A stretch of DNA of 64,000 nucleotides, taken from NCBI GenBank assembly GCA_030613025.1, contig JAUWMT010000008.1, positions 3,318 through 67,317 on the forward strand. Direction: 5' to 3'. The notes beneath the pieces are model-generated. The model searched no databases, was not told the DNA's origin, and saw only the letters and a list, made by a program, of their open reading frames with translations. Positions within the stretch are counted from its first letter, which is position 1. Each line of letters opens with the position of its first letter. This document shows, piece by piece, positions 2,695-24,939 of this stretch. The DNA comes from Candidatus Cloacimonadota bacterium (GTDB taxonomy: Bacteria; Cloacimonadota; Cloacimonadia; JGIOTU-2). The translations under genes and the position numbers were made by a program.

Positions 2695-4767
2695 ATGACC
2701 ATCTTTGAGGTTATGGAGTTAAAGTATGCAGAAGGTAGAATGTGTATTAAAAAACCAACCATTTTAGTTATAATACTTTTATTTTTTTTTCATATCTGTA
2801 CGATATTTGCAGGGGAAGTAGATTCATTAAAGAACAGATTAGAAACCGAAACAGGTGAGGGAAAGATAGAAATTTTAGACAAGTTAGCAGGAAATTATTG
2901 GGAGCTTTCTCCAAATGAAAGAATTCCATTTGCAGCACAAATGGTTGAATTATCTGAAAAACTTAAGGATCAAGGTTATAAAGCAGATGCATACAATTAT
3001 TTGGGAATAGCTTACAATCAACTTGATGAAACTCAAAAATCCATGGATTATTTCCTGAATGCATTAGATATAGCCAAACAAACTAATGATAAAGACAGAA
3101 TTGCAAAATCTTTTCTCAATCTCGGACAGGCAAATTTTTATTTGGATAATTTTGATAAAGCCCAAGAATATTTTCAAAAACTTTTGGAGATAAGAACAGA
3201 AATTGAAGATAAACAAGGTATATCCATGGCGTTAAACCAGTTAGGTACTGTTATGGCTAGAACCAAACGGTATGATGAAGCTTTAGACTATTTTTCCAAA
3301 TCCCTGATAATAAGAAAAGAGATCGATTACAAAATAGGTATTTCTCAGATATACAATAATATTGCGAATGTATATTTTGATTTAGGAGAAATGGATAACG
3401 TTCTGGAATATCGGTTACGATCATTGGAAATCGTTCGAGAATTGAATAACAAATGGGAAATGGCTATTACCACTTATAATGTTGCAGAATATTATTTATA
3501 TAATAATGAACCCGACGAAGCTTATCCGTATTTACTTGAATCACAGGAATTGGCAGAAATGCTTAATAATCAAGGATTGATCAGAGATAATACACAATTT
3601 TTTTCATGGTATTATGAATTAAAAGAGGATTATCCAAAATCGATAAAATATTTGAAAGAATATGCGAAATTAACAAAGAAGCAATTTTCCCAGGCACTAA
3701 GTGAAAAAATTGCAGAAATGCATGCAAAGTATGATGTGGACACAAAAGATAAGGAAATTGCCTTGCTTCAGAAGAATAATCAGATACATCAGCTTAACCT
3801 CTCAAAACAAAAACTTGTGATCTTCTTCTCAATATCATTCTTCATTTTGTTTATAGTTATAGGATTAATTATATTTATTAAAGACAAAAATATTGAGAAA
3901 AAACTTGAGCGAGCGGTGAGTGAGCGCACAAAGGAGCTTAAGAATGAGATTGATGAGCGAGTTCAAACTGAATTGAAATTACTACAAGCAAACGATGAAT
4001 TGACCAAGCTACAACTGAGACTGGAACAAAAGGTTGAAGACTCGATCAAACAGATACGGCAGCAGGATCACATGATAATCCGGCAGTCACGACAGGTAGC
4101 AATGGGGGAGCTCATGAACAATGTAGCCCATCATTGGAGGCAGCCGCTGGCAGCAGTTGGATTGATCGTTCAGGACATTCAGGATGCCTTTCATGCGGAT
4201 GAACTTAATGAAAAATATTTGCAGGAATCGGTTGGTGAGGCAATGAAGCAGTTGCAGCAGATGTCAAAAACAATTACGGATATTTCCGAACTTTTTATCA
4301 CAACCAAAGTTGAAAGATCTTTCAATGTAAAAGAAGAAATTGAAAGAATGATCCATGTTTTATCCCAGAATTTCAAAGCAAATAACATAAATACATATTT
4401 GGATTGCAAAGAGGATTGTACTGTTTTAGGATATCCTCATGAATTTGCGCAGGTGGTGTTCAATATCCTGACAAATGCAAAAGAAATAATCGTCCAAAGA
4501 GAATGTAAGGAAAGAAATATATTCCTGAAAGTTTCAAATGAAAATAAGATATGCAAGATCATAATTGAGGACACCGCAGGTGGAATAGATGATGAAATGA
4601 TTGACAAAATATTCGAACCATATTTTTCTACGAAAGAAAATTTAGTCGGAACAGGATTAGGTCTATATATGTCCAAAATGCTTATCGAGAAGAACATGAA
4701 AGGTTCTCTTACTGTGCAGAATACCGAAAAAGGAGCAGTGTTTACCATTGAAATCACAACCAATTAA
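2695..4767 (+). CDS. Membrane sensor histidine kinase with a periplasmic TPR-repeat sensor domain.
   Basis: TPR-like repeats (AYNYLGIAY, ALNQLGTVM, etc.), one transmembrane segment (LVIFFSISFFILFIVIGLIIFI), a coiled coil, H-box NVAHHWRQPL, and HATPase motifs (GTGLGLYMSKMLIE). A signal-peptide-like alternative start lies at 2740. Confidence 0.8.
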   Translation: MTIFEVMELKYAEGRMCIKKPTILVIILLFFFHICTIFAGEVDSLKNRLETETGEGKIEILDKLAGNYWELSPNERIPFAAQMVELSEKLKDQGYKADAYNYLGIAYNQLDETQKSMDYFLNALDIAKQTNDKDRIAKSFLNLGQANFYLDNFDKAQEYFQKLLEIRTEIEDKQGISMALNQLGTVMARTKRYDEALDYFSKSLIIRKEIDYKIGISQIYNNIANVYFDLGEMDNVLEYRLRSLEIVRELNNKWEMAITTYNVAEYYLYNNEPDEAYPYLLESQELAEMLNNQGLIRDNTQFFSWYYELKEDYPKSIKYLKEYAKLTKKQFSQALSEKIAEMHAKYDVDTKDKEIALLQKNNQIHQLNLSKQKLVIFFSISFFILFIVIGLIIFIKDKNIEKKLERAVSERTKELKNEIDERVQTELKLLQANDELTKLQLRLEQKVEDSIKQIRQQDHMIIRQSRQVAMGELMNNVAHHWRQPLAAVGLIVQDIQDAFHADELNEKYLQESVGEAMKQLQQMSKTITDISELFITTKVERSFNVKEEIERMIHVLSQNFKANNINTYLDCKEDCTVLGYPHEFAQVVFNILTNAKEIIVQRECKERNIFLKVSNENKICKIIIEDTAGGIDDEMIDKIFEPYFSTKENLVGTGLGLYMSKMLIEKNMKGSLTVQNTEKGAVFTIEITTN

Positions 4768-4801
4768 AGATACACCAAAAGCTCTTTTACCCTTATCAAT
4801 T

Positions 4802-6196
4802 ATGTATGTCGAGGATGAAGGTGTCATTCTCCGTTCGATCAATACGATGATGGAACGTAAGATCAAAGATGTTTTCACCGCACTTAATGGGGAAATTGGA
4901 CTTAAGATATTCAAAAAGCATAAGCCACAAATCGTTGTAACAGATATAAAGATGCCTGTCATGAACGGTCTGGAAATGATCGAGAAGATCAAGGAAATCG
5001 AACCTTCAACGAAATTTATCGTAGTGTCAGCTTATGGAGAAATAAACTATTTTATCAAAGCAATAGAACTTGGAGTTCAGGGTTTTATTCTCAAACCGGT
5101 TAATGTGAAACAGCTTATGGGCTTGATTCAGGAATTGGGCAACGGTATTTTACTTCAAAAGGAGATAGAAAGGAAGGAAGAGGAACGCAAGAGATCTGAC
5201 GAAGCGCTTCAGGAGCAGAAGGCATATTTCGAGCATCTTTTTGAAAGTTCGCCGGAAGCAATTGTGGTTGCTTCGATTGAGGGAAAAATAGTACAGATCA
5301 ACCGCGCATTCTCAGAAGTGTTTGGTTACACTGAGGAAGAAGCGATTGGAAAAGTGCTGGATGAGCTCATTTCTGCTGATGAACTTTTAAACGAAGCTAC
5401 TGAATACACCAAGCAAGTTGTCAGTGGAAAAGATATACGGCTTGAAACAAAGCGTAAAACCAAAAGCGGTAAATTGCTGGATGTATCCGTTCTCGGCACG
5501 CCTATCATAATAGAAGGGCAGCAGGTAGCGGTGTATGGTATCTATCGAGATATCACCGACAGGAAACGGGCTGAAGATGAGCTTAAGGCAAGTTATGAGA
5601 GATTGCAGAAGCTAATTCAGGATACGGTAAATGTGCTTGCCAATGTTGTTGAATTGCGGGATCCCTACACTGCAGGTCATCAGCATAATGTAGCTCAACT
5701 TGGGATTTCCATAGCAAAGGAAATGAAATTTCCCTCCGATATGATCGAAGGTATTCGCATTGGTGGGACTATGCACGATATTGGTAAGATAAAAATACCG
5801 ATCAGGATATTGAATAAATCGGAAATGCTAACAGATAAAGAATGGGAGCAGATCAAATTTCATCCTACAGTTGGATATGAACTTTTAAAGGACCTGGATT
5901 TCCCATGGCAGGTCGCAAAGATGGTTCATCAGCATCATGAGCGTTTTGACGGTTCGGGTTATCCAAATGGTCTGAAAAAAGATAAAATTCTTATGGAAGC
6001 AAGGATCCTTGCAGTAGCTGACGTTGTAGAAGCAATGGCAAACGACCGACCCTATCGTCAAAGTCTTGGATTGGAAATAGCCCTTGAAGAGATCGAGGAT
6101 AACAAAGGTATTCTATATGATCCTGATGTCGTTGAAAATGCTGTAAAAATTCTAAAGAATGGCGCATTTGTTTTTGGCAAAAAACATACCACATAA
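4802..6196 (+). CDS. Response regulator with receiver, PAS and HD-GYP phosphodiesterase domains.
   Basis: Receiver motifs (MYVEDEG..., TDIKMPVMNG), a PAS segment, then HD-GYP motifs (HHERFDGSGYP, LAVADVVEAMANDRPY). The track ORF starts at a TTG at 4748; the first in-frame ATG at 4802 was used. Confidence 0.8.
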   Translation: MYVEDEGVILRSINTMMERKIKDVFTALNGEIGLKIFKKHKPQIVVTDIKMPVMNGLEMIEKIKEIEPSTKFIVVSAYGEINYFIKAIELGVQGFILKPVNVKQLMGLIQELGNGILLQKEIERKEEERKRSDEALQEQKAYFEHLFESSPEAIVVASIEGKIVQINRAFSEVFGYTEEEAIGKVLDELISADELLNEATEYTKQVVSGKDIRLETKRKTKSGKLLDVSVLGTPIIIEGQQVAVYGIYRDITDRKRAEDELKASYERLQKLIQDTVNVLANVVELRDPYTAGHQHNVAQLGISIAKEMKFPSDMIEGIRIGGTMHDIGKIKIPIRILNKSEMLTDKEWEQIKFHPTVGYELLKDLDFPWQVAKMVHQHHERFDGSGYPNGLKKDKILMEARILAVADVVEAMANDRPYRQSLGLEIALEEIEDNKGILYDPDVVENAVKILKNGAFVFGKKHTT

Positions 6197-6529: not shown

Positions 6530-8221
6530 ATGCATACGCAGGGAGCACGTATGAAAAAAGTAGTCTTGTTTTTCACACTCATTATATTTTTATTCTCCGC
6601 TCAATCATTACTCGCGCAGGATAATATAGCCACCGGCAGCATTCAACCTTCAGAACTTTTACCTGGTGGGAAGGGTATGATCACAGTGACCTTCACTATT
6701 CCGGAAGGAATGCATCAAAGCTTGCAGGAAGACTATTTCTATATCGAAGCTGAAGAAGTAGAAGGTATTGAATTTTCACACACTCAATATCCCGAAGGTA
6801 TCGAAGAAGACAGTTTGATAAATTATTACGAGTCCGTAATTTTGCAGCAGGAATTCACCCTCTCAAAAGATTTTCCTGCAGATGCGTATGAGCTTTTGGT
6901 CTATGCCGGCTACCAGTTCTGTGAAAACTCTGGAATGTGCTATTTTCCGGAAGAGGAGGAGCTTGTACTTACTTTTGCCGTCCAAGGTGTGCAAAGTGTG
7001 ATCTCTGCAATGGAGACGCTCCAGACAGATTCAAAAACTGAAGTAGAAACATCGCCTGAGATTGAGTTCACAGAGATCAAAAGTAAGCTTGATGGATTTG
7101 TCATGACAGACATTGCTGCCGGGTATCTGAAAAGCAAGGATTTTATCTTGTTTGCAGAAGATGCAAAAACAGCGGATGGTTCGTCCGCAAATAGATTTGC
7201 AGGAATGAGTATCTGGCTGATACTGCTTCTGATTGTTGTCGGGGGTATTGCACTTAATCTCACTCCCTGTGTTCTTCCTATGATGCCCATAACCATTGCA
7301 GTGCTTGGAGCCGGCACACAGGCGGAATCCAGAGGAAAGGGTTTTTTGATCGGTAGTGTATATGGAATCGGTATGATGCTTGCCTATGGCTGTCTCGGTT
7401 TGATCGTAGTGCTCACCGGTTCACGATTCGGTGAGATTAATTCCTCGCCCTGGTTCAATATAATAATTGCAATTATTTTTATCCTGCTTGCTCTTGCCAT
7501 GTTTGATGTGTTCCCTATAGATTTTACAAAATTCCAGTCCGGCAAGATGGCTGGTAAGAAAACAGGAAAGGGAAAATATATTACAGTATTTGTGCTGGGT
7601 ATTATCGCCGCATTGCTTGCCGGTGCATGTGTTGCTCCTGTCCTTATTTCGGTAATTCTGTATTCGGTAACTTTATATACTTCGGGAAATCCTGCCGGTT
7701 TGCTGCTTCCATTCCTGCTTGGTGCTGGTATGGCATTGCCGTGGCCCTTTGTCGGCGCCGGACTTTCGATCCTTCCCAAACCGGGAAAATGGATGCAGTG
7801 GATCAAATATATCTTTGGTGTGATCATACTGGTTATTGCGCTTCTTTATGGCTACACAGCAGTTTCAATTTTTAAAACACAATCCCAGCCGGTGGTGTAC
7901 GAGCACACAGACGAAAGTACGACCGAAGAAACCGACCTTGTCTGGATGCCTTCTTTGATAGATGGTCTTGAAAGAGCAAAAGAAGAAGACAAACCGGTTC
8001 TCATTGATTTCTGGGCAACTTGGTGCAAGAACTGTCTTGTAATGGAAGCAACTACATTTAAAGATGATAGGGTTGAAGAGGTTTTGAAAGATTTTGTTCT
8101 TGTACGGTATCAGGCAGAGGATTTGAACAAATCCCCGACAAAAGAGATACTCGATCATTTTGGTGTGCTTGGACTTCCATCTTATGTCGTACTTATACCT
8201 AACTCGGATAAACCTGAATAA
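6530..8221 (+). CDS. dsbD: Thiol:disulfide interchange protein DsbD-like: N-terminal domain, cytochrome-c-biogenesis-type transmembrane core and C-terminal thioredoxin domain.
   Basis: Signal peptide (more likely from the second ATG at 6551, MKKVVLFF), multiple TM helices with conserved Cys (LTPCVLPMMP), C-terminal WATWCKNC thioredoxin motif. Confidence 0.8.
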   Translation: MHTQGARMKKVVLFFTLIIFLFSAQSLLAQDNIATGSIQPSELLPGGKGMITVTFTIPEGMHQSLQEDYFYIEAEEVEGIEFSHTQYPEGIEEDSLINYYESVILQQEFTLSKDFPADAYELLVYAGYQFCENSGMCYFPEEEELVLTFAVQGVQSVISAMETLQTDSKTEVETSPEIEFTEIKSKLDGFVMTDIAAGYLKSKDFILFAEDAKTADGSSANRFAGMSIWLILLLIVVGGIALNLTPCVLPMMPITIAVLGAGTQAESRGKGFLIGSVYGIGMMLAYGCLGLIVVLTGSRFGEINSSPWFNIIIAIIFILLALAMFDVFPIDFTKFQSGKMAGKKTGKGKYITVFVLGIIAALLAGACVAPVLISVILYSVTLYTSGNPAGLLLPFLLGAGMALPWPFVGAGLSILPKPGKWMQWIKYIFGVIILVIALLYGYTAVSIFKTQSQPVVYEHTDESTTEETDLVWMPSLIDGLERAKEEDKPVLIDFWATWCKNCLVMEATTFKDDRVEEVLKDFVLVRYQAEDLNKSPTKEILDHFGVLGLPSYVVLIPNSDKPE

Positions 8222-8225
8222 ATAT

Positions 8226-8278
8226 AACCACGAATTAACACGAATGCACACGAAAGCACCCGAATGAAAAAATTAAGC
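8226..8278 (+). repeat. Period-10 tandem repeat (xxCACGAAx, 4 copies) followed by AAAAAATTAAG, directly after the dsbD stop codon.
   Basis: aaccacgaat taacacgaat gcacacgaaa gcacccgaat gaaaaaattaagc read directly. The same motif family recurs at 14633-14672 and 17531-17572. Confidence 0.85.
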
Positions 8279-8464
8279 ATAAAAAATTATCTTTGTGAAT
8301 CCTCTATAATAAAGAGGTTACAGAGACTTGAGGTAATATTTTGCCAAAAAAATATTCTTAATTTTTCCTTTACATCTTTGCGTCTTTGCGAGAATCTTTG
8401 TTTTCACGTCCGTCGGCTGATTGGAATCCTAAGTACCTAAATAATTTTTAAGAGGTTTAAAAAT

Positions 8465-9544
8465 ATGAAAAAAGTTTTGTTTTGCATACTTGGAATTGTC
8501 ATACTGCTTTCAATTTTTTCCTGTGACAGATTTAAACATCATTTTGATCCCATTCTTACACCCTTTGAACATTATTTAGAACGCTTTGCCGCTCATATGG
8601 AAGATGGTATTTTATTTGATGATGTTGCATCTATTATGACCTATTATTCGAACACTTATCTAAACGATGGAATGGAAAAAGCTGACATGCAAGCTCTGTA
8701 TGATTCACTCGCATTAGCATCACCGGACAGCATTTCAATCAATATAGATATTCTATCTGAGTTCGATTATAAGGTGTCGTACCGTATTATGACAGCAGGT
8801 GTTGACACTACGATAATCGACTATGCCCAAGCTCAACGTGACAGCTTTCTTTTCATAGGAAATCAGATCGCTCCTGCAGTTCCTCAAAAAGTTTTGGTCG
8901 AAATGATCACAGGGACATGGTGTTCGAACTGTCATTATGCAGAGGAAGCGCTTAAACAGCTCAAGCAGGAATACGGGAATGCCTTTTATTATATTGAATA
9001 CCACTGGGACGACGATCTGGATGTTGGTGCAATAGAGGTAATTGAATATTATAATATGAGCTATTCAGCCCCTCAATCAATGTTCCAGGGACAGGTAAAG
9101 GTAACAGGCGGTGGGGGAGACACCTATGATCAATATCATAACACTATCACCAGTTTTTTTGATCAGGACGCTCTGGCAGAACTGAAAAATTTCTCCTACA
9201 CAATTTCTGATACTTTATCCGGGCAGATCACAATTAGGAAAGACTATTCTCTTCCTATGGAAGACCTATATATCAAATATGCGCTGATTGAAAAAGTATC
9301 TTCTGTGCTCGGATATACAGGAAGACCCTGTGAACAGGTGGTTATCGCAAAAGGAATGAAAAATATTGGTGAGGAAGATTTTTCCAATCCGATTTCTTTT
9401 AAACTTGGAATGCCTTCAACCGTTCCGGATGACATTGTGCTCTATGTATGGCTGCAAACTCTTGAAGATCCCTATAATGCAGATACGTGTAAAATTTATA
9501 ATGTGATAGAAGAAGATATTTTACTTGAGAAGGGGAGCATTTAA
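8465..9544 (+). CDS. Lipoprotein with a thioredoxin-like CxxC motif.
   Basis: Lipobox (LLSIFSC) and WCSNCH motif. No further family assignment possible by eye. Confidence 0.55.
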   Translation: MKKVLFCILGIVILLSIFSCDRFKHHFDPILTPFEHYLERFAAHMEDGILFDDVASIMTYYSNTYLNDGMEKADMQALYDSLALASPDSISINIDILSEFDYKVSYRIMTAGVDTTIIDYAQAQRDSFLFIGNQIAPAVPQKVLVEMITGTWCSNCHYAEEALKQLKQEYGNAFYYIEYHWDDDLDVGAIEVIEYYNMSYSAPQSMFQGQVKVTGGGGDTYDQYHNTITSFFDQDALAELKNFSYTISDTLSGQITIRKDYSLPMEDLYIKYALIEKVSSVLGYTGRPCEQVVIAKGMKNIGEEDFSNPISFKLGMPSTVPDDIVLYVWLQTLEDPYNADTCKIYNVIEEDILLEKGSI

Positions 9545-10350
9545 TGAAAAGAACGATTTCTATTCTGATATTCAGTGTTCTCTTTTTAATTTCAACAGTA
9601 TTCGCACTGGACACCATGTCGGATTTTACTCTTGAAGACATCAACGGAGATCAGATCGATTCTGACGAACTGTTGAGTAAAAAAGCAGTGATAGTTGACT
9701 TCTGGGCAAAGTGGTGCGGTCCCTGCAAGAAAGCCCTTCCCCATCTCAGCGATCTTCAGGAAAAGTATAGGGATCTCGTTAATGTAATTTGTATCAGCAC
9801 AGATAAAGCACGTGATGCCGGTAAGGTTAGATCCTTTGTAAAATCTAAGAATTTCGAATTCATTACTCTTCTTGATCCCAATAAAAACGTAAGCAAGCTT
9901 TTCAATGTAAACACAATTCCTAGAACATTCATCATCGATGAAAATGGTGAGATCGTTTACAGGCACGAGGGCTATATACAGGGCGATGAACACGAGCTTG
10001 AGACAGAATTGAGAAAGGTCATTTATAAAGATATTACCATCGAGGAACTCAACGAATTATTCCCACCTGAAGAATTGCCTGAACCGATAAATTATGTGTC
10101 TCCAGTTTATCCTGAAAAAGCTTATGATGACAAAGTTGAAGCAGATATCATACTCGATCTTGTGATTATGGAAGATGGCACTGTTGGTCAGGTATGCCTT
10201 ATCAGCGCCTGCAAAGACACAATTTATGGCTTTGAGAAAGCTGCCATCGATGCAGCACAGCAATGGGTATTTGAGCCTATTATTGTTGACAGTGTGGCTG
10301 TAACAACTCGTGTGCTTTATCCGAGCCGGTTCAGAATAGAAAAACAATAG
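9544..10350 (+). CDS. Periplasmic TlpA/ResA-like thioredoxin domain fused through a Pro/Glu-rich linker to a TonB C-terminal domain.
   Basis: Signal peptide. Redoxin active site FWAKWCGPCKK. Linker ELFPPEELPEPINYVSPVYPE. C-terminal segment (EKAYDDKVEADIILDLVIMEDGTVGQV...) typical of the TonB_C fold. Its ATG overlaps the upstream stop (ATTTAATGA). Confidence 0.65.
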   Translation: MKRTISILIFSVLFLISTVFALDTMSDFTLEDINGDQIDSDELLSKKAVIVDFWAKWCGPCKKALPHLSDLQEKYRDLVNVICISTDKARDAGKVRSFVKSKNFEFITLLDPNKNVSKLFNVNTIPRTFIIDENGEIVYRHEGYIQGDEHELETELRKVIYKDITIEELNELFPPEELPEPINYVSPVYPEKAYDDKVEADIILDLVIMEDGTVGQVCLISACKDTIYGFEKAAIDAAQQWVFEPIIVDSVAVTTRVLYPSRFRIEKQ

Positions 10351-10358
10351 AGGTACTT

Positions 10359-11789
10359 ATGAAAAAAGTAATAATATTTATCCTGATCCTTTCTATTGCT
10401 TCATCACTTTTTGCATTGAAAGATTTTAGTGTAACCGGCTTGAATGAAGCAACATACGTCTATAAAAATGCAGTTGATTCTCTGAGGAATTATTTCTCAG
10501 ACGAGTTTAGTTTCCGCATGACCTATAAGAATTTCACCTTTGGTATGAAGTTCATTGCAAATCTTCCAAAGTATGATGAATTCGCAGCGATGCAGGAGCT
10601 TACTTCGCAGTCGATTTCCTATACCTGGGATGAACGATTCCTTGAATATAAAGTGGATGATTTCTCTGCACGAGCCGGCAACTTTGAACAGGTTTTTGGC
10701 TCAGGTATTGCACTGCGTGTTTATAGGGATAGAGATTTTGATATTGACACACGATTGAACGGTTTCTCCGCAGAAATCTTCCCTAAATCCTTTCAGATGA
10801 AAGCACTTTATGGCGCACTTCCCAATGAGGATAATGACATTAAAAACGATGTGGTTGCCGGTATTGATATGCAGAAGGATATATTTGATCCCGTTAAACT
10901 TGGCGCTTCTTTTGTGAATGTTCGAGAGTGGCAGGCAGGTGATAATTATCTGGATAGAAAGATTCTCGGCATTCGTGCTGACGTGAATGCAAGCCGGTTT
11001 GATATGAGCGCTGAGTATGGTTATCTTGATCAATCTGAAGGTATCTCAAAGATAGGGCATGCCTTTTATGGAAATCTCAATACCTATTTTGATATAATTT
11101 CTTTTTCAGTTGCCTACAATAATTACCTGAATTTTGATTCGCGCTTGAACGACCTACCGATCCTCAATCACAGTAATGAACCGTTATATGACTCTCCGAT
11201 CGGGAAAGACCAGCAGGGCGTGATGGGAGAAGTGATGTTCATGCCTAATGACTTTAATGAGTTCGTAGTCAATTATGCTGAGGAATGGAATGATGCGTGG
11301 ACAATTCGGCAGAGCGATTTGTGGGTGGAAGCGATCCACTACTTTGACACCTCGATCCTCATCGCAAGCTTTTCTCATATTGAAAGAAAGGACGAGGAGA
11401 TAAATCACTGGGAAAAAGAAGTTACACCCACGCTTATGTATGATTTCATGATCGGTGAGACGCCTATTTCCATCAAAGCGGAATACCAGTATCATGACAA
11501 ACACTATCAGCAGGAAAAAATCCATCATTGGGAACCTCTTTTACAGATCGATACGAATATATTTAATATTGACTGTTCGGTCATTGCGGAATATTCTTAT
11601 GAAAAAATGAAAGATATTGGAAAAAATCCTCTCTGGCTCGGTGCAGAGATCAGCAAAGAGATATTTGAGAACACCACAATGCGTCTCTTTATCGGTAAAG
11701 AAAAAGGCGGAAAGGTCTGCCGCAACGGCATTTGTAAATATCGCAACCAGTTTGAAGGATTACGTTTAGAATTAATAACCACTTTTTAG
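10359..11789 (+). CDS. Putative outer-membrane beta-barrel protein.
   Basis: Signal peptide, alternating amphipathic strands, C-terminal ...LELITTF with a terminal aromatic residue typical of outer-membrane proteins. In the same operon as the redoxins. Confidence 0.5.
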   Translation: MKKVIIFILILSIASSLFALKDFSVTGLNEATYVYKNAVDSLRNYFSDEFSFRMTYKNFTFGMKFIANLPKYDEFAAMQELTSQSISYTWDERFLEYKVDDFSARAGNFEQVFGSGIALRVYRDRDFDIDTRLNGFSAEIFPKSFQMKALYGALPNEDNDIKNDVVAGIDMQKDIFDPVKLGASFVNVREWQAGDNYLDRKILGIRADVNASRFDMSAEYGYLDQSEGISKIGHAFYGNLNTYFDIISFSVAYNNYLNFDSRLNDLPILNHSNEPLYDSPIGKDQQGVMGEVMFMPNDFNEFVVNYAEEWNDAWTIRQSDLWVEAIHYFDTSILIASFSHIERKDEEINHWEKEVTPTLMYDFMIGETPISIKAEYQYHDKHYQQEKIHHWEPLLQIDTNIFNIDCSVIAEYSYEKMKDIGKNPLWLGAEISKEIFENTTMRLFIGKEKGGKVCRNGICKYRNQFEGLRLELITTF

Positions 11790-11803
11790 TGGGAGGAGCA
11801 TAA

Positions 11804-12535
11804 ATGAAAAAAATGGCAATTGTGTTTTTAAGTTTAATGATATTTGGTGTCATAAGTCTGCAGGCAGATCTGGCATTTGACATTCCATTTGATCCGGATG
11901 TTGTCGGACCAGCATATAATGACTCGAGTTATATCTATGTATCCGAATATTTCAGTATTGTTAATAATGGAGTAACAGATCATTTCACCGTTGTTCTAGA
12001 ATACGGCTCAATGCCACCGGATTGGTCGATCATGTTCTGTCATATTTTGAATGGTTCTGGCGCATGTCATTTACCGGTTTATCCATGGAATTTCAATTTT
12101 GCCAGCGGAGATACCCTTTTTCTTGATTTCACGATCAATGTGAACTCAGCTGGCTCAATGGATTTCACTTATACATTTACTGCACCAAGCTTAACAACGC
12201 CTTATGTGCTTGATTTTAGTTATACTACAGGCGTTTCTGTGGATGACCCTCAATCCAACGAAAAGGTACTTTTGAAAAATTCACCTAATCCCTTTAGTGA
12301 ATCAACCTCTATCTCATTTAATCTAAAGAATTCTGCACATAGAGGTGCAGAGATCACAATATACAATCTTCAGGGGAAGTGTGTTAAAACCTATGATATC
12401 ACCCCTGATATGAACTCGATCACATGGAATGGTAAGGATGAAAAAGGCACAGCCATGCCAAGCGGTGTGTACTATTACACAATTTCTTTGGATGACGAGA
12501 TCACAAAAACAAAAAAATTATTATTACTCAAATAA
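11804..12535 (+). CDS. Secreted protein with a T9SS C-terminal sorting domain.
   Basis: Signal peptide. C-terminal LLKNSPNPFSESTSISFNL...EITIYNLQGKCVKTY...GVYYYTISLD matches Por-secretion-tail architecture. Confidence 0.7.
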   Translation: MKKMAIVFLSLMIFGVISLQADLAFDIPFDPDVVGPAYNDSSYIYVSEYFSIVNNGVTDHFTVVLEYGSMPPDWSIMFCHILNGSGACHLPVYPWNFNFASGDTLFLDFTINVNSAGSMDFTYTFTAPSLTTPYVLDFSYTTGVSVDDPQSNEKVLLKNSPNPFSESTSISFNLKNSAHRGAEITIYNLQGKCVKTYDITPDMNSITWNGKDEKGTAMPSGVYYYTISLDDEITKTKKLLLLK

Positions 12536-12543
12536 GGAGACCT

Positions 12544-14628
12544 ATGCGTTTTAAACTTGGACTATTGATATCAATGTTACTGATATTTAGCGGATTTTCA
12601 ACATTGTATGGAAATCAGAAAATATTAACCCCGCAGCTTGAGCAGAAGTTGCAAGAGAGTACTCAGGATGAATTAATACCTATCAATATAGTGATGAAGC
12701 AGCAGTATGATCATCAGGATTTGTTGCAGCAAAGTAACTTTTTACCTAGTTCGGAAAGAAGAGATTTTGTAATTCAGGAATTGAAATCCTTTACTGATAT
12801 CCATCAGCAGGATCTTCTTTATGATCTGGAGAACTTATCCTATAATGATATTGTGCAGGATATCCAGCCCTTGTGGGTTTCGAATGTCATAACCTGTAAG
12901 GCAACATCGGAGGTCATATATGATCTTATTCAAAGAAATGATATTGACTTTATTGATCATGATGAGGTCCGCAATATGCTGATGTTTGAAAAAGAAAATT
13001 CCTATAATCCAACCTCCCGTGAGATCACATGGAATGTGATCAAGGTCAATGCAGATGATGTATGGAATCTTGGCTATACTGGGAGCGGAGTAACTGTTGC
13101 TGTGATCGATACCGGCGTGAACTATAACCATGTTGATCTTGCAGATCATCTCTGGACTGATCCCGGTTACCCAAATCATGGCTGGGATTTTCGTTTCAAT
13201 GACAACAATCCTATGGATGATCACGGACATGGCACACATTGTGCGGGAACAGTTGCCGGAGACGGAACTGCCGGCTCTCAGACAGGTGTTGCTCCTGATG
13301 CGGAGATCATGTGCCTGAAAGTACTCGATAGTGGTGGAAGCGGCTCTGAGTCCGGTGTGTGGAGCGCGATCCAGTTTGCTATCGATAATGGAGCAGATAT
13401 AATGAGCATGTCCCTGGGCTGGCTTCATGCATGGGGACCGAACAGAGTAACGTGGCGGAATACCATGAATACAGCTTTGGCTGCAGGTGTCGTTGCATCT
13501 GTTGCAGCAGGCAATGAGGGAGATCAGCAGTATATGTATCAAATCCCTGATAATGTCCGTACTCCCGGAGATTGTCCTCCCCCCTGGCTTCATCCCGACC
13601 AAACACTGACAGGTGGTATAAGCTCGGTTGTTTGTGTTGGTGCCACCAACTCCGGTGATGGAATTTCGGGCTTTTCCGCTCGAGGTCCTGTCACATGGCA
13701 GAGCATTTCCGGATTCAATGATTATGCATATAGCCCCGGAATGGGTTTGATACGTCCTGATGTAGTTGCGCCCGGATCTAATATTAAATCTTTAGCCCAT
13801 TATAGTAACTACGGATATGAAAACGGCTGGAGCGGAACATCTATGGCTACACCCTGTGCTGCAGGAGTCATGGCTCTGATGCTTTCAAAAAATCCCAATA
13901 TAGCTCCTCCCCAGATCGACCAGATCCTCGAAGAAACTGCCCTTCCTCTGGCAACTTCAAAGAGCAACACTTATGGTTCGGGAAGAGTGGATGCGCTGGA
14001 AGCAATAAACCAGGTTCCATTCCCAAGTCCGGTCATGAATTTTTATCCTGACAGTCTTGATTTCGGTCCTGTACAGATCGGTTATGACTCCACCCTGCAA
14101 TTCTATATTGAAAATGTAGGCGGAGATACTCTGCGTGGAATTATCATATCACCTGAAGGATATTCCGTTGCACAGGATGGTTTAAAAGAACCCGGAAGAA
14201 ATACTGTCGAATTTGCAGTTCCATCAGGCAACACTGATACTTACAATCTTACTTTCACTCCCACAAATGTTCAATCCTATGACGGACAGGTCAGGATCAG
14301 TCAATACCCATTTTATAACTTCTTTCTTGATGTCTATGGCGAAGGATATCCTGAAGTGGGCAATGAGCCCGACCTCAACTTTAATGCGATAATTGAACAT
14401 TTTCCAAATCCTGTAAGAACTACTCTGACAATTCATTATGCTCTTGGTCAACAAAATACCGATCTGCCAATTGCGATCTATAATATTAAAGGTGAGTTCG
14501 TAACGGAAATTCAGGGAAGTAACGGCTTTGCACATCTCGACGCAACAAACATGAACGATGGTGTGTATTTATACAAAATTCAAAATAGTGAAACAACTTA
14601 TATTGATAAATTCATTATAATAAAATAA
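12544..14628 (+). CDS. Subtilisin-like (S8) serine protease with N-terminal propeptide and T9SS C-terminal sorting domain.
   Basis: Catalytic-triad motifs VAVIDTGV (Asp), HGTHCAGT (His), GTSMATPCAAG (Ser). C-terminal FPNPVRTTLTIHYAL...IAIYNIKGEFV...GVYLYKIQN. Confidence 0.85.
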   Translation: MRFKLGLLISMLLIFSGFSTLYGNQKILTPQLEQKLQESTQDELIPINIVMKQQYDHQDLLQQSNFLPSSERRDFVIQELKSFTDIHQQDLLYDLENLSYNDIVQDIQPLWVSNVITCKATSEVIYDLIQRNDIDFIDHDEVRNMLMFEKENSYNPTSREITWNVIKVNADDVWNLGYTGSGVTVAVIDTGVNYNHVDLADHLWTDPGYPNHGWDFRFNDNNPMDDHGHGTHCAGTVAGDGTAGSQTGVAPDAEIMCLKVLDSGGSGSESGVWSAIQFAIDNGADIMSMSLGWLHAWGPNRVTWRNTMNTALAAGVVASVAAGNEGDQQYMYQIPDNVRTPGDCPPPWLHPDQTLTGGISSVVCVGATNSGDGISGFSARGPVTWQSISGFNDYAYSPGMGLIRPDVVAPGSNIKSLAHYSNYGYENGWSGTSMATPCAAGVMALMLSKNPNIAPPQIDQILEETALPLATSKSNTYGSGRVDALEAINQVPFPSPVMNFYPDSLDFGPVQIGYDSTLQFYIENVGGDTLRGIIISPEGYSVAQDGLKEPGRNTVEFAVPSGNTDTYNLTFTPTNVQSYDGQVRISQYPFYNFFLDVYGEGYPEVGNEPDLNFNAIIEHFPNPVRTTLTIHYALGQQNTDLPIAIYNIKGEFVTEIQGSNGFAHLDATNMNDGVYLYKIQNSETTYIDKFIIIK

Positions 14629-14672: not shown

Positions 14673-14888
14673 AGTTTTGCAGAATATTTTTATTAAAATC
14701 AATTTTCGTGTTTTTTGTAGTTAGAAATTTTTATATGGAGGTGGCTGAATAGTCAAAACATTGATTGAGGATGATAGCAAAAGCAGTTCCATAATTAAAA
14801 GATGAAATAAAAATTACTTTGACATTTAAATTTTGACATTTTATTTGTCATTAGTAATTTGGATTTAGAAATTATTTTAAAGGTTAAT

Positions 14889-17498
14889 ATGATCATGAAG
14901 AAAAAAAGAACAAAAATATTTGCTATTGCGTTGATATGTGTTGCAATTCTAGCAGTTGTGCTCATTTCCGTTCATAAACCAGCTCTAAAAGGCAAACCTG
15001 CAGAACGCTGGGTGGAGAGACCTCACGGCGAAAAAGTAAAGAAAGAACCGGATGTGCTTCCTAATGAATGGATGGCATATCAACGTGTATATCCCTATAA
15101 TAAGATCAAGCTTGAGAACTATCTCAAAGGTATTGAAGATGCACAAAAACTGCATGAGGGGTCCTCTCAATATAGATATAACTGGGAACTTGTCGGTCCA
15201 ACTAATATCGGTGGACGGATTACCGATCTTGCTATTGACCCGACTGATCTCAATAAATACTATGTGGGAGCAGCATCAGGCGGTGTGTATAAAACCATAA
15301 ACGGCGGTGCAAGCTGGGAAAATATCTTCACGGATGTACCTGTTATCTCAATTGGAGATATTGAAGTCGATCCTAATGATGGGAATACACTTTATGTTGG
15401 AACAGGCGAAGCGAATGCTTCGAGTTATAGTTTTTTGGGAAACGGAATGTATAAATCTACAAATGGCGGATTGTCCTGGGATCATATTGGACTTGACGAA
15501 TCAGGATACGTCGGAAGAATTATTGTGGATTATAACAATTCCCAGAGAGTATTCGTTGCTGCTTGCGGAAATTTGTTTTCAGCGAATCCGGAACGTGGTG
15601 TATATCGCAGCGATGATGGGGGACAAACCTGGGTTAGAAAGCTATTTATCACAGATTCTACAGCCGCAGTTGATTTGGTTCAACATCCTACAAATCCGGA
15701 CATTTTGTACGCTGCTATGTGGGAGCGTATGAGGGGTTTGAATTACAGACGCTCATTTGGTTTGAGTTCCGGAATTTGGAAATCAGAAAATGGCGGGGAT
15801 ACTTGGACTGAGCTGACGAATGGCTTACCTACAGGAAACGATGTCGGCAGAATTGGTCTGGCAATTGCAAAATCTAATCCGAACAGACTCTATGCCTTTT
15901 ATGATAGAACGAATCAGATTGATGTCTTTAAAACAAATGATGGCGGAAACAGTTGGACTGCTACGAATGATGGTGCGCTGCAGGGAATCAACAGCACCTT
16001 TGGCTGGTATTTTGGGCAAATTCGGGTTGACCCGAATGATCAAGACCGGGCGTATGTGATGGGAGTATATCTCTACCACACGACAAATGGAGGTTCAAGC
16101 TGGAGCCAGATCGGCAGCAACATCCACGTTGATCATCATGCAATGTATATTGATGAAGTCACAGGATTTATAATTGAAGGAAATGATGGCGGTCTTTATA
16201 CAAGCTCAAATTCCGGCACATCCTGGACAAAAATCAATAATCTTCCAATGACCCAGTTCTATGCAATTGAGATCGATCAAACCTACCCATACAGAATTTA
16301 CGGCGGCACACAGGACAATAATACTATTCGAACTCTCACTGGAGCACTCAATGATTGGGAACCAATTCTGGGCGGAGACGGATTCTACTGCATTGTAGAT
16401 TACACTGATCCTAATACTATATTTGCAGAATATCAATGGGGCAATTTGTATAGATCTACAAATGGCGGTTATAGTTTTAATTATATTTCCTATCCAATGA
16501 GCGGAGACAGAACGAACTGGTCATCACCTTATGTGATGCATCCTATCAATCCTGATATTCTCTACTTTGGTACTTACCGAATTTGGAAAACTACGAATGG
16601 TGGTTCGGGCTGGAATGCGGTCAGCGGAGATCTTACTCAAGGTGATGATGGAAGCAGTTATCACACTATTTCTACAATAGCAATTTCGAAACTCAATCCA
16701 GGTCTTATTCTTGCAGGCAGCGATGATGGAAGAGTTCACATTTCTCATAATAATGGAAGTTCATGGATAGATATTTCTACAGGATTACCGGATCGCTGGA
16801 TAACCAGAGTTGCTTTTGATCATCATGATGCAAATACTATTTATGCAACTGTTTCGGGATTTCGCTGGGATGAGGAAGCTCCTCACGTCTTCAAGTCCAC
16901 CAATCTTGGAATGGACTGGTTGAATATAAGCGGAAATCTTCCTGAAATTCCTGTGAACTGCATTGCTGTTGATCCTAATATTCCGAATAAGTTATTTGTA
17001 GGAACGGACTCCGGCGTATTCTTCTCTGAAGATGGAGGACAGAACTGGTATGGACTTTCTCAAGGGCTTCCAAATGTTCCTGTTACAGATATGAAGATCT
17101 ACAATCCAGATCGATTTATGGTCATCGGAACCTACGGCTGTTCCGCTTATAAGATCGATCTTGATGACATTATTGTTAGTAATGATCCGGAACCGGAAGA
17201 GCAAGTATTTGTGAAGCTTTATCAGAATTATCCAAATCCGATTTCATTGACAGCGCATACTTCAACTCAAATCGGTTTCTCACTTGGTACAGCTGGGAAT
17301 GTAGATATTTCTATCTACAATATAAAAGGGCAGAAGATCAAAACTATTCTGAATACTCAAATGGCAGCTGGTGATCATACTGCGCAATGGAATGGCACTG
17401 ATGAGTTAGAACAATCTGTCTCCACCGGCATCTATCTCTATAAATTATCAGTAAATGGCAATGTAAAACAAATAAAACGATGTACGGTTATTAAATAG
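14889..17498 (+). CDS. BNR/Asp-box repeat protein (sortilin/Vps10- or glycosidase-like beta-propeller) with T9SS C-terminal sorting domain.
   Basis: At least 10 Asp-box motifs (STNGGLSWD, SDDGGQTWV, SENGGDTWT, TNDGGNSWT, TTNGGSSWS, etc.). C-terminal LYQNYPNPISLT...ISIYNIKGQKI...GIYLYKLSV. The track ORF starts at a TTG at 14859; the in-frame ATG at 14889 was used. Confidence 0.8.
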   Translation: MIMKKKRTKIFAIALICVAILAVVLISVHKPALKGKPAERWVERPHGEKVKKEPDVLPNEWMAYQRVYPYNKIKLENYLKGIEDAQKLHEGSSQYRYNWELVGPTNIGGRITDLAIDPTDLNKYYVGAASGGVYKTINGGASWENIFTDVPVISIGDIEVDPNDGNTLYVGTGEANASSYSFLGNGMYKSTNGGLSWDHIGLDESGYVGRIIVDYNNSQRVFVAACGNLFSANPERGVYRSDDGGQTWVRKLFITDSTAAVDLVQHPTNPDILYAAMWERMRGLNYRRSFGLSSGIWKSENGGDTWTELTNGLPTGNDVGRIGLAIAKSNPNRLYAFYDRTNQIDVFKTNDGGNSWTATNDGALQGINSTFGWYFGQIRVDPNDQDRAYVMGVYLYHTTNGGSSWSQIGSNIHVDHHAMYIDEVTGFIIEGNDGGLYTSSNSGTSWTKINNLPMTQFYAIEIDQTYPYRIYGGTQDNNTIRTLTGALNDWEPILGGDGFYCIVDYTDPNTIFAEYQWGNLYRSTNGGYSFNYISYPMSGDRTNWSSPYVMHPINPDILYFGTYRIWKTTNGGSGWNAVSGDLTQGDDGSSYHTISTIAISKLNPGLILAGSDDGRVHISHNNGSSWIDISTGLPDRWITRVAFDHHDANTIYATVSGFRWDEEAPHVFKSTNLGMDWLNISGNLPEIPVNCIAVDPNIPNKLFVGTDSGVFFSEDGGQNWYGLSQGLPNVPVTDMKIYNPDRFMVIGTYGCSAYKIDLDDIIVSNDPEPEEQVFVKLYQNYPNPISLTAHTSTQIGFSLGTAGNVDISIYNIKGQKIKTILNTQMAAGDHTAQWNGTDELEQSVSTGIYLYKLSVNGNVKQIKRCTVIK

Positions 17499-17976: not shown

Positions 17977-18321
17977 ATGAAGTGTCCAAAATGCAATGCA
18001 GATGTAATTAATGGTGTAAAATTTTGTAGTAATTGTGGATATTCTTTAGGCAAAGAGAAAAATATTAATTTTGCTGAACACAATTCTTCTTACAATTATT
18101 CAAGCTCAAACAAGAAATTAAAATCACCTGGTTTAGCATTTTTTCTTGGTTTTTTGTTTGGCCCTTTGGGTTTGTTATATATTTCAACTAAGCTAGCTTT
18201 AGGTGCATTTATATTATTAGCTTTTTTTGCATTAATTACTGGAGGGATAGGTTTATCTTTATGGTTTGCATGTGCTTTTGGTGGTTATTTTGCAGCTAAA
18301 GACTATAATAAAAAACATTAA
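17977..18321 (+). CDS. Small membrane protein: N-terminal zinc ribbon plus a TM2-like two-helix domain.
   Basis: CPKC...CSNCG ribbon, then two hydrophobic helices (LAFFLGFLFGPLGLLYI..., ILLAFFALITGGIGLSLWFACAFGGYF). Confidence 0.55.
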   Translation: MKCPKCNADVINGVKFCSNCGYSLGKEKNINFAEHNSSYNYSSSNKKLKSPGLAFFLGFLFGPLGLLYISTKLALGAFILLAFFALITGGIGLSLWFACAFGGYFAAKDYNKKH

Positions 18322-18335
18322 TATATGGAGGTAAG

Positions 18336-18917
18336 ATGAAATGTAAGAATTGTAATGCAGAAATCTTAGATGATGCTAAATTTTGCAGTAATTGTGGTTT
18401 TAAAATGGAAAGCAAAAATTTATGCCCAAATTGTGGTATTGAAATTGAACAAGGAATAAAATTCTGCGGTAGCTGTGGTGAGCAAATAAGTGGTTCATTT
18501 AGCACAAATCATCAACAATCAAAATTAAAATCAGGATCAACAAAACAAAGAGTCTATGTAAATAAAGCTTCTCAATTATCTAAAGCATCAGAAATTGTAA
18601 AAGCCCTGTTATCAAATGAAAATCTTGAGTATCAAGAGTTTCCAGATTCTAATGGTATTTTAATACAAGCAAGAAAACCACCAAAAATTTGGAAAACAGC
18701 TTTAGGACTAGAAATTGCAGCTACAATTAAATTAAATAAAGATGGTGAAGACCTTATTGTAAATATTGGTGGAGGTAAATGGTTAGATAAAGCCGCAGGT
18801 GGGACAGTATTTTGGTTTGTTTTTTGGCCAGCGATATTAACTACTGGTTGGGGAATATATATACAGCAAAAGTTATTTAAACAAATTGATAATGCATTAA
18901 TTGCAAATTTAAATTGA
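18336..18917 (+). CDS. Double zinc-ribbon protein with an uncharacterised C-terminal domain.
   Basis: CKNC..CSNCG and CPNCG..CGSCG pairs. RBS GGAGG is present. Beyond that: a C-terminal hydrophobic stretch FWFVFWPAILTTGWGIYI. Confidence 0.5.
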   Translation: MKCKNCNAEILDDAKFCSNCGFKMESKNLCPNCGIEIEQGIKFCGSCGEQISGSFSTNHQQSKLKSGSTKQRVYVNKASQLSKASEIVKALLSNENLEYQEFPDSNGILIQARKPPKIWKTALGLEIAATIKLNKDGEDLIVNIGGGKWLDKAAGGTVFWFVFWPAILTTGWGIYIQQKLFKQIDNALIANLN

Positions 18918-18940
18918 TATTACTAGTTATGGGAGAAAAA

Positions 18941-19228
18941 ATGAATATCTTTGAACAATTAGAAAGAATTGATGAAATAATTGAAAAAAAATTTGAACTT
19001 GAAGCTCAAAATATGATGCAAATATTAGAAGGAGGAAGTCTTGGAGGATTGGGATTTGCTAATTCAGGAATGCAACCTTTGAGCCGTTATCATAAAGACC
19101 CATTAGGGAATGTTATTGATCAAGATAATGATGACATACCTGATAATATGGATTATCATTGGGGACATGGACAATATGATCAAAATGATTTAAATCACAA
19201 TGGTACACCAGATTATTTAGAAGAGTAA
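18941..19228 (+). CDS. Small acidic hypothetical protein.
   Basis: Open frame with a GGGAG RBS before the ATG at 18941 (the track starts at a TTG at 18914). Asp/Asn/His-rich, no recognisable motif. Confidence 0.35.
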   Translation: MNIFEQLERIDEIIEKKFELEAQNMMQILEGGSLGGLGFANSGMQPLSRYHKDPLGNVIDQDNDDIPDNMDYHWGHGQYDQNDLNHNGTPDYLEE

Positions 19229-19229
19229 T

Positions 19230-20612: not shown

Positions 20613-20882
20613 GAGGTAAATTATTGGTTGGGCTGATAATTTATTAAATAGGAATTAATGTAATTTTGCATTTAATTTAAGAAGGATAATGAATATTATG
20701 TGTATAGTAGAAATAAACACAATGGTATTTATGCACCCAAATTGGCAGGCTAAACACAATGAATTTATCTACAAGTTGTGCGCCATTGTTTAGATTATTA
20801 AAATACACCAAATTAAAATGAAACACAGTGTTATAAAGAAAAATTTTAAATATAAAAAAATCAAAACATATTGGATAATATC

Positions 20883-22425: not shown

Positions 22426-22707
22426 GTGAGAGAGGGTGATCTGATAAATATGAAGGTGCATTTTATTGATGTGAGGGAAGGGGACGCGATATTAGTACAG
22501 TATGAGGGGGAGAATTATTTGATCGACTCGGGGCGGAATTTGAGCTCGAACCAGCTGATTACTTATGTTGATTCGGTGGGGTTGCTGCTTACAGGGGAAA
22601 GCGAAACAGAAAATAACCAGTACCTTTTAGATGAATATGATCTTGATGTGGAAGTTTTGAAGGTTTCTCATCATGGAGCTTTTTACTCGTTCCTATCCGT
22701 CAGCTGA
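22426..22707 (+). pseudogene. Remnant of a ComEC/Rec2-type metallo-beta-lactamase-fold gene (internally deleted fragment).
   Basis: MKVHFIDVREGDAILVQ...LIDSGRN resembles the first strands of the ComEC C-terminal MBL domain, and ...LKVSHHGA resembles its later HHGS motif, but about 150 aa in between are missing. No proper start codon. The ORF ends inside a 36-bp palindrome. Confidence 0.4.
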
Positions 22708-24813: not shown

Positions 24814-24844
24814 CGTATTTCAAAAAAATAGAATAGCTTTCGGT

Positions 24845-24939
24845 TGAGAGGAAGGAACTGGTGTTCCAGCTGGTCTTCAAAATCAGTAGTGTGCGGATAA
24901 CACCGTTCATGGCAGGTTCGATTCCTGCCCTCTCGGCCA
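24845..24939 (+). tRNA. selC: tRNA-Sec (selC-like), anticodon UCA. Boundaries approximate (+/- 3 nt).
   Basis: Anticodon stem-loop GCTGGT-CTTCAAA-ATCAGT (24869-24887) with anticodon TCA. D-arm GGAAC-TGGT-GTTCC. Long extra arm. T-arm GCAGG-TTCGATT-CCTGC. 3' CCTCTCG-G-CCA pairs with 5' (T)GAGAGG. About 95 nt long. Sits between the selenoprotein gene and selA. Confidence 0.65.

Follow-up and report, generated by a model that had tools for sequence, protein, structure and literature searches.

A DsbD-linked cassette of redoxin, DUF6029 barrel and T9SS protein in Cloacimonadota, with a TonB C-terminal domain on the redoxin in one clade

The reductive pathways that depend on DsbD or CcdA, such as those of CcmG, ResA and TlpA, of DsbC and DsbG, or of ScsBCD, are thought to end in the periplasm, and to our knowledge there is essentially no knowledge of the redox control of cysteine or selenocysteine on proteins outside the outer membrane of diderm bacteria. 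Here we describe a gene cassette from a Candidatus Cloacimonadota bacterium (assembly GCA_030613025.1), found in a 64,000-nucleotide stretch of contig JAUWMT010000008.1 that we call the window and to whose positions our coordinates refer. Like the known pathways, the cassette has a complete DsbD followed by secreted CxxC proteins of the thioredoxin fold. Unlike them, its partners are an outer-membrane barrel and a protein anchored by the T9SS (type IX secretion system), both with invariant cysteine pairs, together with a TonB C-terminal domain (TonB_C) that is attached to the redoxin in this clade. The cassette also differs in what it lacks: copper-resistance genes are missing, and cytochrome c maturation, Sco/Cox and Msr genes are found neither in the window cassette nor in any syntenic cassette.

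Several described systems share parts of this arrangement. The cassette redoxin is related in sequence and fold to ResA, DsbE and TlpA, and the encoding of several redox partners in one cluster recalls the Scs cluster. Proteins with a thioredoxin fold or a CxxC motif are also held at the surface of other bacteria by a T9SS tail or a lipid anchor, as in HBP35 and Omp28 of Porphyromonas gingivalis and the CcdA-fed Etrx1 and Etrx2 of Streptococcus pneumoniae. However, neither HBP35 nor Omp28 has been described with a dedicated barrel in the outer membrane or with a coupled redoxin in the periplasm, and the Etrx proteins belong to a monoderm host with no outer membrane to cross. MtrCAB, LptD/LptE and the usher barrels are likewise comparable in that a large, plug-less barrel is co-encoded with a lipoprotein and a redox protein, although the likeness is a structural analogy only (7-13% identity) and the cassette carries no haem motifs.

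The TonB_C part invites comparison with TonB itself. As in the TonB transducer, the C-terminal ~85 residues of the fusion have the TonB_C fold with its YP motif, but a His-containing N-terminal anchor, a long Pro-rich spacer and cassette-borne exbB and exbD genes are all absent, and a redoxin sits where the spacer would be. Bacteria of the Fibrobacterota-Chlorobiota-Bacteroidota (FCB) group also possess accessory TonB_C proteins, including TonB1 and TonB7-11 of Bacteroides thetaiotaomicron, M56/BlaR1-TonB_C proteins and proteins with multiple TonB_C domains, in which TonB_C is appended to unrelated periplasmic or membrane proteins much as it is here. Our literature search on TonB_C/thioredoxin fusions returned only the B. 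thetaiotaomicron TonB study, in which a DsbE-like gene lies between tonB9 and tonB10 (bioRxiv 10.1101/2023.07.07.548152). The TonB_C proteins described from that organism include no redoxin fusion, whereas the Cloacimonadota protein combines TonB_C and a thiol reductase in one polypeptide. A search on Omp28 together with thioredoxin found nothing relevant, and the main text of the Cloacimonadota genomics papers that we searched contains no mention of DsbD, thioredoxin, TonB or T9SS. The module formed by the redoxin, the DUF6029 barrel and the T9SS cysteine-pair protein appears to be undescribed in the literature we searched, and it appears more interesting than the fusion that drew attention to this locus.

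Gene order in the window and across genomes

Within 6530-14628, six co-directional open reading frames on the plus strand encode, in order, DsbD (6530-8221), a predicted thioredoxin-fold lipoprotein of 359 aa (8465-9544), a redoxin-TonB_C fusion of 268 aa (9544-10350), a DUF6029 outer-membrane beta-barrel (10359-11789), a small protein of 243 aa with a type-A T9SS C-terminal domain (CTD) (11804-12535), and an S8 subtilase with a T9SS CTD (12544-14628). The open reading frames and their Pfam and NCBIfam assignments confirm the gene order and positions given in a preliminary description of the window, as well as the tight packing from 8465 to 14628 that it had emphasized. The successive gaps are 243, -1, 8, 14 and 8 nt, with 230 nt before the next gene. 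A terminator scan found no terminator-like site on the plus strand inside 8465-14628, and a sigma-70 promoter scan gave a count not above the shuffled expectation.

We scanned one genome per GTDB species with a DUF6029 alignment and obtained 56 loci, almost all of them from Cloacimonadota, which we annotated with hidden Markov models built from our own alignments; three threshold artefacts in redoxin adjacency were corrected by hand. In every case (54/54 loci), and in Cloacimonadota, Marinimicrobia and a third lineage alike, the gene immediately upstream of the DUF6029 gene encodes a redoxin. The distance from redoxin stop to barrel start has a median of 8 nt and falls between -22 and +18 nt in 47 of 52 loci. 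The thioredoxin-like lipoprotein is present in 46 of 50 loci and a T9SS-CTD gene follows the barrel in 44 of 49, while DsbD, which in the window stands two genes upstream of the redoxin, is encoded upstream in 37 of the 41 loci with enough flanking sequence.

Conservation of the order extends well beyond the closest relatives. Around the most distant homolog of the fusion (56% identity), synteny spans the entire neighborhood, including the S8 gene and the sortilin-like gene that follows it. Where the barrels are 36-38% identical to that of the window, the order is DsbD, a lipoprotein of ~360 aa, a redoxin of 167-173 aa without TonB_C, DUF6029 and a T9SS-tailed protein, and the S8 gene is absent. 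DUF6029 proteins of Marinimicrobia (~570-600 aa, 25% identical) and a more distant member of 519 aa also have a redoxin of 163-170 aa encoded directly upstream, again without TonB_C, and their neighbors are Omp28-like or T9SS-tailed. WCxPC is invariant in the redoxin alignments. Thus the conserved unit is larger than the fusion, consisting of the redoxin, DUF6029 and the T9SS cysteine-pair protein, usually with DsbD and a CxNC lipoprotein. Both the assignments and the recurring gene order support the proposal that these genes form a coherent thiol-redox unit outside the cytoplasm with a link to T9SS cargo. We also encountered typical Cloacimonadota cassettes (DsbD, lipoprotein, redoxin, DUF6029 and T9SS protein) on contigs L028 and L033 of metagenome-assembled genomes labeled Armatimonadota; these probably reflect mis-binning and not a genuine occurrence.

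It could be argued that such an order persists for regulatory or historical reasons, with the redoxin serving housekeeping clients and the barrel acting as a porin or polysaccharide exporter. DUF6029 has indeed been likened by HHpred to the Wzi beta-barrel, near polysaccharide-export genes, and an export role has been suggested on that ground (PMC9603273); our search for literature on DUF6029 found nothing beyond this suggestion of a Wzi-like polysaccharide porin. We nevertheless regard this explanation as highly improbable, given the universal adjacency across phyla with near-zero spacing and the presence of invariant cysteine pairs in precisely those members that are not enzymes. Moreover, neither OPX nor other polysaccharide genes occur in the cassettes examined.

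The two genes at the head of the cassette encode the proteins that would supply and relay electrons. DsbD matches DsbD_TM (141.5 bits), Thioredoxin_7 (53.6 bits) and the NCBIfam model NF001419 (219 bits), and its alpha, beta and gamma modules are all present, although DsbD_N at 23.6 bits is slightly under its cutoff of 25. All three cysteine pairs can be read in the sequence: FCENSGMC in alpha (Cx5C), TPCVLP/GACVAP in beta and WCKNC in gamma. The first ATG of the open reading frame (6530) encodes MHTQGARMKKVVLFF..., and because a signal-peptide-like sequence begins at Met8, the true start is probably Met8 at 6551.

The lipoprotein has its lipobox cysteine at position 20 and a WCSNC motif. Across 22 orthologs the invariant residues include lipobox C20, R22, F23, C153 and C156, the last two forming an active-site-like CxNC at 8921-8932. 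The family profile matches thioredoxins over the CxxC (1fo5, E 1.5e-7), as well as the DUF1223 protein 2axo and, weakly, the T9SS-secreted thioredoxin-like HBP35 (5y1a, E 0.009). Taken singly, 12 of the 22 orthologs match DUF1223 and 7 match Thioredoxin in Pfam, and the window protein matches no Pfam family. Membership in Omp28 was considered and rejected: NF033782 scores 25.4 bits against a cutoff of 150 and covers only aa 138-172 around the CxxC, and PF11551 is matched by none of the 22 orthologs. Because the Omp28 match is local to the CxxC and far under the cutoffs, we describe the lipoprotein, from its profile matches, as thioredoxin-fold.

The region around dsbD shows some features of its own. 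The dsbD-lipoprotein spacer is 243 nt in the window versus ~12-20 nt in relatives such as L001, and four tandem 10-nt repeats (CACGAATGAA; Tandem Repeats Finder score 45) at 8229-8268 may form an operator or be left over from an insertion. A response-regulator-PAS-HD-GYP protein (4748-6196) is encoded on the same strand shortly before dsbD, and response-regulator/PAS proteins likewise precede dsbD in the syntenic loci L001 and L002. Regulation of the cassette may fall to the 4748-6196 protein.

A TonB C-terminal domain on the redoxin

The union of a redoxin and a TonB C-terminal domain in the 9544-10350 product, recognized at the outset from the sequence, is corroborated by Pfam, NCBIfam, AlphaFold 2 and Foldseek. 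The protein consists of a signal peptide (aa 1-21), a redoxin domain (aa 23-155, 9610-10008) with its WCGPC active site at 9715-9726, a linker (aa 161-185) and TonB_C (aa 186-265, 10099-10338). The redoxin part scores 81 bits for Redoxin, 83.5 for AhpC-TSA and 89 for the ResA subfamily, reaching none of the NCBIfam equivalog cutoffs, and the TonB_C part scores above threshold with both PF03544 (41.5 bits, gathering 24.6) and TIGR01352 (31.8 bits, cutoff 27.1). In an AlphaFold 2 model built from an alignment of 18 homologs (mean pLDDT 74), the C-terminal ~90 residues do take up the TonB_C fold, a beta-alpha-beta-beta-alpha-beta arrangement at pLDDT 88-95. Foldseek places this half with the CTD of Pseudomonas aeruginosa TonB (6fip, TM 0.74, rmsd 3.0 Å over 89 columns) and the N-terminal half with DsbE/ResA/TlpA structures, including 3gl3, 1su9 and 1jfu, and also with Etrx1/2. 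The 18 aligned homologs are conserved over their full length, with C58, C61 and the Y189-P190 "YP" motif invariant, and both domains are under purifying selection, more loosely in TonB_C (dN/dS 0.11-0.56) than in the redoxin (0.07-0.10).

Despite this domain, the fusion protein is almost certainly not a transducer energized by ExbBD, because its signal peptide looks cleavable, because it lacks both a His-bearing anchor and a spacer that would span the periplasm, and because the cassette holds no exbBD. His is absent from residues 1-21 (MKRTISILIFSVLFLISTVFA), which close with an AxA-like cleavage site (VFA|LD) that is kept across homologs. The region between the domains had been described as a TonB-like Pro/Glu-rich spacer; it does include a PPEELPEP stretch, but at only ~25 residues it is far shorter than the spacer of TonB. 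Pfam searches and locus annotation revealed neither exbB/exbD nor TonB-dependent transporter (TBDT) genes in the cassette, and no exbB/exbD in the syntenic loci. The label "TonB family protein", under which several fusion clusters already stand in NCBI/JGI annotation, is misleading for these Cloacimonadota genes.

The fusion is rare. Our protein search covered 5.8 billion proteins, with an exhaustive HMMER scan over 1.84 billion representatives, and recovered ~27 protein clusters with the full-length architecture at identities down to 56%, below which there is an abrupt fall to ordinary TlpA-like proteins. The named clusters all belong to Cloacimonadota (Ca. Celaenobacter, Cloacimonas sp. 4484_140 and Cloacimonetes). 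The HMMER scan added a cassette member of 314 aa that is 41% identical and has a longer linker (P0172), and on a 2.5-kb contig (L008) we found an unrelated protein of 709 aa, P0270, in which a redoxin, two TonB_C matches and TPR form an independent redoxin-TonB_C architecture. The architecture is therefore rare and arose or persisted more than once. The impression that such a fusion had not been seen before holds as to rarity but not as to uniqueness, in view of P0270 and of the entries that databases already carry. Nor is the linkage strain-specific noise, as the gene order recurs in more than 50 species-level genomes and the fusion is kept in ~27 clusters.

The distribution among cassettes nonetheless speaks against TonB_C as an intrinsic part of the system. 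TonB_C is found on the redoxin in 9 of 54 loci, which all belong to the clade in which barrel identity to that of the window is 51% or more, whereas the orthologous redoxins of most Cloacimonadota and of all Marinimicrobia loci examined are 163-173 aa long and have no TonB_C, and only a few nucleotides separate their ends from the barrel gene. One explanation for the domain is general localization, whereby TonB_C would tether the redoxin to a generic target, such as the TonB boxes of TBDTs or peptidoglycan, and raise its concentration near the outer membrane with no partner in the cassette. This would be in keeping with the habit of FCB bacteria of appending TonB_C to many unrelated proteins, M56 peptidases and multi-TonB_C proteins included, with the finding that the nearest relatives of the fusion's TonB_C are such multi-domain proteins, and with the faster evolution of TonB_C relative to the redoxin. 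On the other hand, within Cloacimonadota the fusion is seen only inside the cassette, purifying selection on TonB_C is maintained, and the cassette offers no TBDT or exbBD gene; we consider general localization distinctly unlikely. Because TonB_C is under selection, is confined to the cassette in Cloacimonadota and belongs to a kind of domain that FCB bacteria often append, we read it instead as most likely an accessory docking module that acts by beta-strand augmentation.

Paired cysteines in the barrel and the surface proteins

The product of 10359-11789 matches DUF6029 (PF19494) at 75.4 bits against a gathering threshold of 27, and all 93 barrel homologs carry this domain. AlphaFold 2 models it with high confidence (pLDDT 93.4, pTM 0.85; 80 sequences) as a barrel of ~24 strands by our own count from the DSSP strand list, in which short turns alternate with long loops. 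In the model, strand 1 starts at residue 23, directly after the signal peptide, leaving no plug and no free N-terminal segment. Foldseek finds no close relative, with identities of only 7-13%; globally, the model is fitted best by the FimD/PapC ushers (TMq at most 0.59), MtrB (0.49) and BtuB, and the large barrels among these top fits usually hold a partner or plug inside.

The idea, put forward in the preliminary description, that TonB_C docks onto the N-terminus of the adjacent barrel can be judged against these data. In its full form, TonB_C would grip a TonB box at the barrel N-terminus in the manner of a TBDT and hand over reducing power there. The fusion and barrel genes are adjacent and tightly coupled, TonB_C retains the features for pairing with a TonB box, namely the YP motif and the terminal beta-strand, and the mature barrel begins with a beta-prone KDFSVTGL. 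Yet the modeled barrel, with its first strand at residue 23, has neither a plug nor a free segment that could serve as a TonB box, and its N-terminal sequence (xxISGLNEAxYxYK) is the same whether or not the redoxin carries TonB_C, so that it shows no co-evolution with the fusion. In addition, the barrel has no Plug or TonB_dep_Rec match in Pfam and no TBDT match in NCBIfam. From the Pfam results, the AlphaFold 2 strand map and the fusion-independent N-terminus we rejected the barrel as a TBDT or a bearer of a TonB box, and a TonB_C grip of this kind is very unlikely.

A different part of the barrel is strictly conserved. Cys454 and Cys459 (11718-11735) lie in a Cx4C within GGKVCRNGxC, just before the C-terminal beta-signal ...RLELITTF, and together with G451 and G457 they are invariant in 80 homologs, those of Marinimicrobia included. 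An Asn-Gly turn lies between the two cysteines, at the tip of the final hairpin (439-455/458-475), which is unusually long, and strand parity and the loop-length pattern of the model would place this tip on the extracellular side.

The same feature recurs in the protein encoded next. The 243-aa product of 11804-12535 matches TIGR04183 (35.1 bits, cutoff 23), Por_Secre_tail and FlgD_ig, and its pair C79-x8-C88 (FCH...GACH, 12038-12067) is invariant in four diverged orthologs. A closely spaced cysteine pair stands at the equivalent position in all 47 of 47 distinct T9SS proteins encoded after the barrel, and the longer ones add an N-terminal CxxC domain. We conclude that the 243-aa protein is a core member of the cassette. 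Omp28-like CxxC domains occur in T9SS-tailed neighbors of the barrel (8470-9834 in L003, 9147-10577 in L005 and 2461-4557 in L067), and therefore thioredoxin-like modules are themselves T9SS cargo in these phyla.

The genes that follow are less widely shared. The S8 protease (12544-14628; Peptidase_S8 187 bits, Por_Secre_tail 47 bits, TIGR04183 40.2 bits with cutoff 23) is syntenic in L001/L002 and L009-L013 and absent from L003, L004 and the Marinimicrobia loci, and a plus-strand gene for a Sortilin/BNR-repeat protein with a T9SS CTD (14859-17498; Sortilin-Vps10 101.8 bits, with CTD models also matching) is syntenic in L001. Since cassettes outside the window's clade lack these two genes, both products were rejected as core redox members; the protease, which had been counted as part of the redox unit, is conserved in that clade only.

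Further downstream, the suspected T9SS selenoprotein 8 kb away withstands scrutiny. Its open reading frame (22891-24813) has a single in-frame TGA, at 23071 within FFWGGAG-U-GGC, and encodes a signal peptide, a PKD domain, a beta-helix-like region and a T9SS tail; the N-terminus gives a weak Redoxin/AhpC match of 23 bits, below the cutoff. A tRNA-Sec gene (24842-24938; Rfam 56.8 bits) directly follows, and SelA is encoded after it (24967-26352). Taking the TGA, the T9SS tail, the tRNA-Sec gene and selA together, the sequence indicates that export of a selenocysteine redoxin to the cell surface is very probable in this organism. The intervening stretch at 18000-22000 is low in GC (0.27-0.30 versus ~0.36-0.45 around it) and may be an acquired island. 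It contains genes for a pair of membrane proteins with zinc ribbons (17977-18917), for an M48-like HExxH peptidase that bears a zinc ribbon at its C-terminus (19230-20612) and for a dGTPase-like protein with an HD domain (20871-22208), after which comes a truncated metallo-beta-lactamase-like fragment (22426-22707).

A proposed thiol-reducing pathway with clients in its own operon

As a tentative interpretation, somewhat short of an even chance in our estimation, we propose that the cassette encodes a DsbD-fed extracytoplasmic thiol-reducing pathway whose clients, the barrel and the surface cysteine pairs, are encoded in its own operon. Electrons would pass from cytoplasmic thioredoxin through DsbD to the redoxin, the CxNC lipoprotein or both. 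The redoxin would act at the periplasmic mouth or in the lumen of the DUF6029 barrel and keep the barrel's cysteine pair reduced or cycling; the surface T9SS protein might be served likewise, by way of the barrel pair or the lipoprotein or directly by the redoxin, so that reducing power would reach the outer membrane and the cell surface. In the window's clade, the redoxin would have gained TonB_C on a short linker, and this module would passively keep the redoxin in place at its partner or client in the outer membrane, improving a function that sister lineages carry out without it. The proposal is supported by the invariant cysteine pairs in every component (C58/C61 in the redoxin, C153/C156 in the lipoprotein, C454/C459 in the barrel and the pair of the T9SS protein) and by the association of redoxin and TonB_C elsewhere, in P0270 and in the DsbE-like gene of B. 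thetaiotaomicron.

Several considerations weigh against this proposal. If the barrel pair is extracellular, as strand parity predicts, the only access for a periplasmic redoxin would be by way of the lumen or ahead of barrel insertion, and a single cysteine pair has no obvious need for a dedicated reductase. The loci were retrieved with a motif centered on the cysteine hairpin of the barrel, which biases the set toward barrels that keep the motif, and cleavage of the fusion's signal peptide was judged by eye only. Finally, Marinimicrobia have no DsbD or thioredoxin-like lipoprotein next to the redoxin, leaving only the redoxin, the barrel and the T9SS protein as universal. The 430-aa protein encoded upstream in that phylum was considered as a diverged form of the lipoprotein and rejected, as it has zero cysteines.

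The system might instead serve biogenesis only, and we take this to be the main rival explanation, albeit a rather unlikely one. The redoxin and the lipoprotein would then form a reductase-isomerase resembling DsbC/DsbG that handles the cysteines of the barrel and T9SS proteins during periplasmic transit, and TonB_C would serve for dimerization or for binding an unfolded strand, for example the barrel beta-signal beside the Cx4C. A dependence on DsbD would fit either a reductase or an isomerase, and because the client pairs end up outside the periplasm, transit is the stage at which a periplasmic redoxin could reach them. TonB CTDs bind extended strands and can dimerize, and with LptD and DsbC there is already a known case of an outer-membrane barrel whose disulfides need handling. 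However, with one pair per client there is no intramolecular mis-pairing to correct, and an isomerase seems unneeded. The strict one-to-one, translationally coupled pairing across phyla suggests a lasting partnership over transient help in folding, and the export of CxxC thioredoxin-like domains to the surface points to extracellular redox chemistry.

The proposed client-reducing pathway also has a bolder form, which we consider unlikely, in which the barrel holds the redoxin, the lipoprotein or both in its lumen as a "porin-thioredoxin" conduit, a trans-outer-membrane thiol-disulfide relay with TonB_C locking the periplasmic donor in place in this clade. If true, such a relay would be an outer-membrane counterpart of DsbD and a thiol analog of the MtrCAB porin-cytochrome, and thus a new kind of system. 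Reducing equivalents would travel from the periplasm via the barrel Cx4C to T9SS-anchored surface proteins, among them the cysteine-pair protein, the Omp28-like domains with their CxxC and perhaps also the UxxC selenoprotein encoded 8 kb downstream.

Our findings bear on the broader question of how far the reducing power exported by diderm bacteria can travel. The operon, with a TonB_C domain that is restricted to one clade, suggests an undescribed route of reducing power to the outer membrane or the cell surface, and it offers about five concrete proteins with which delivery to or across the outer membrane can be tested. DUF6029 gains its first functional context, and a thiol reductase joins the enzymes to which FCB bacteria attach TonB_C as a portable docking domain.

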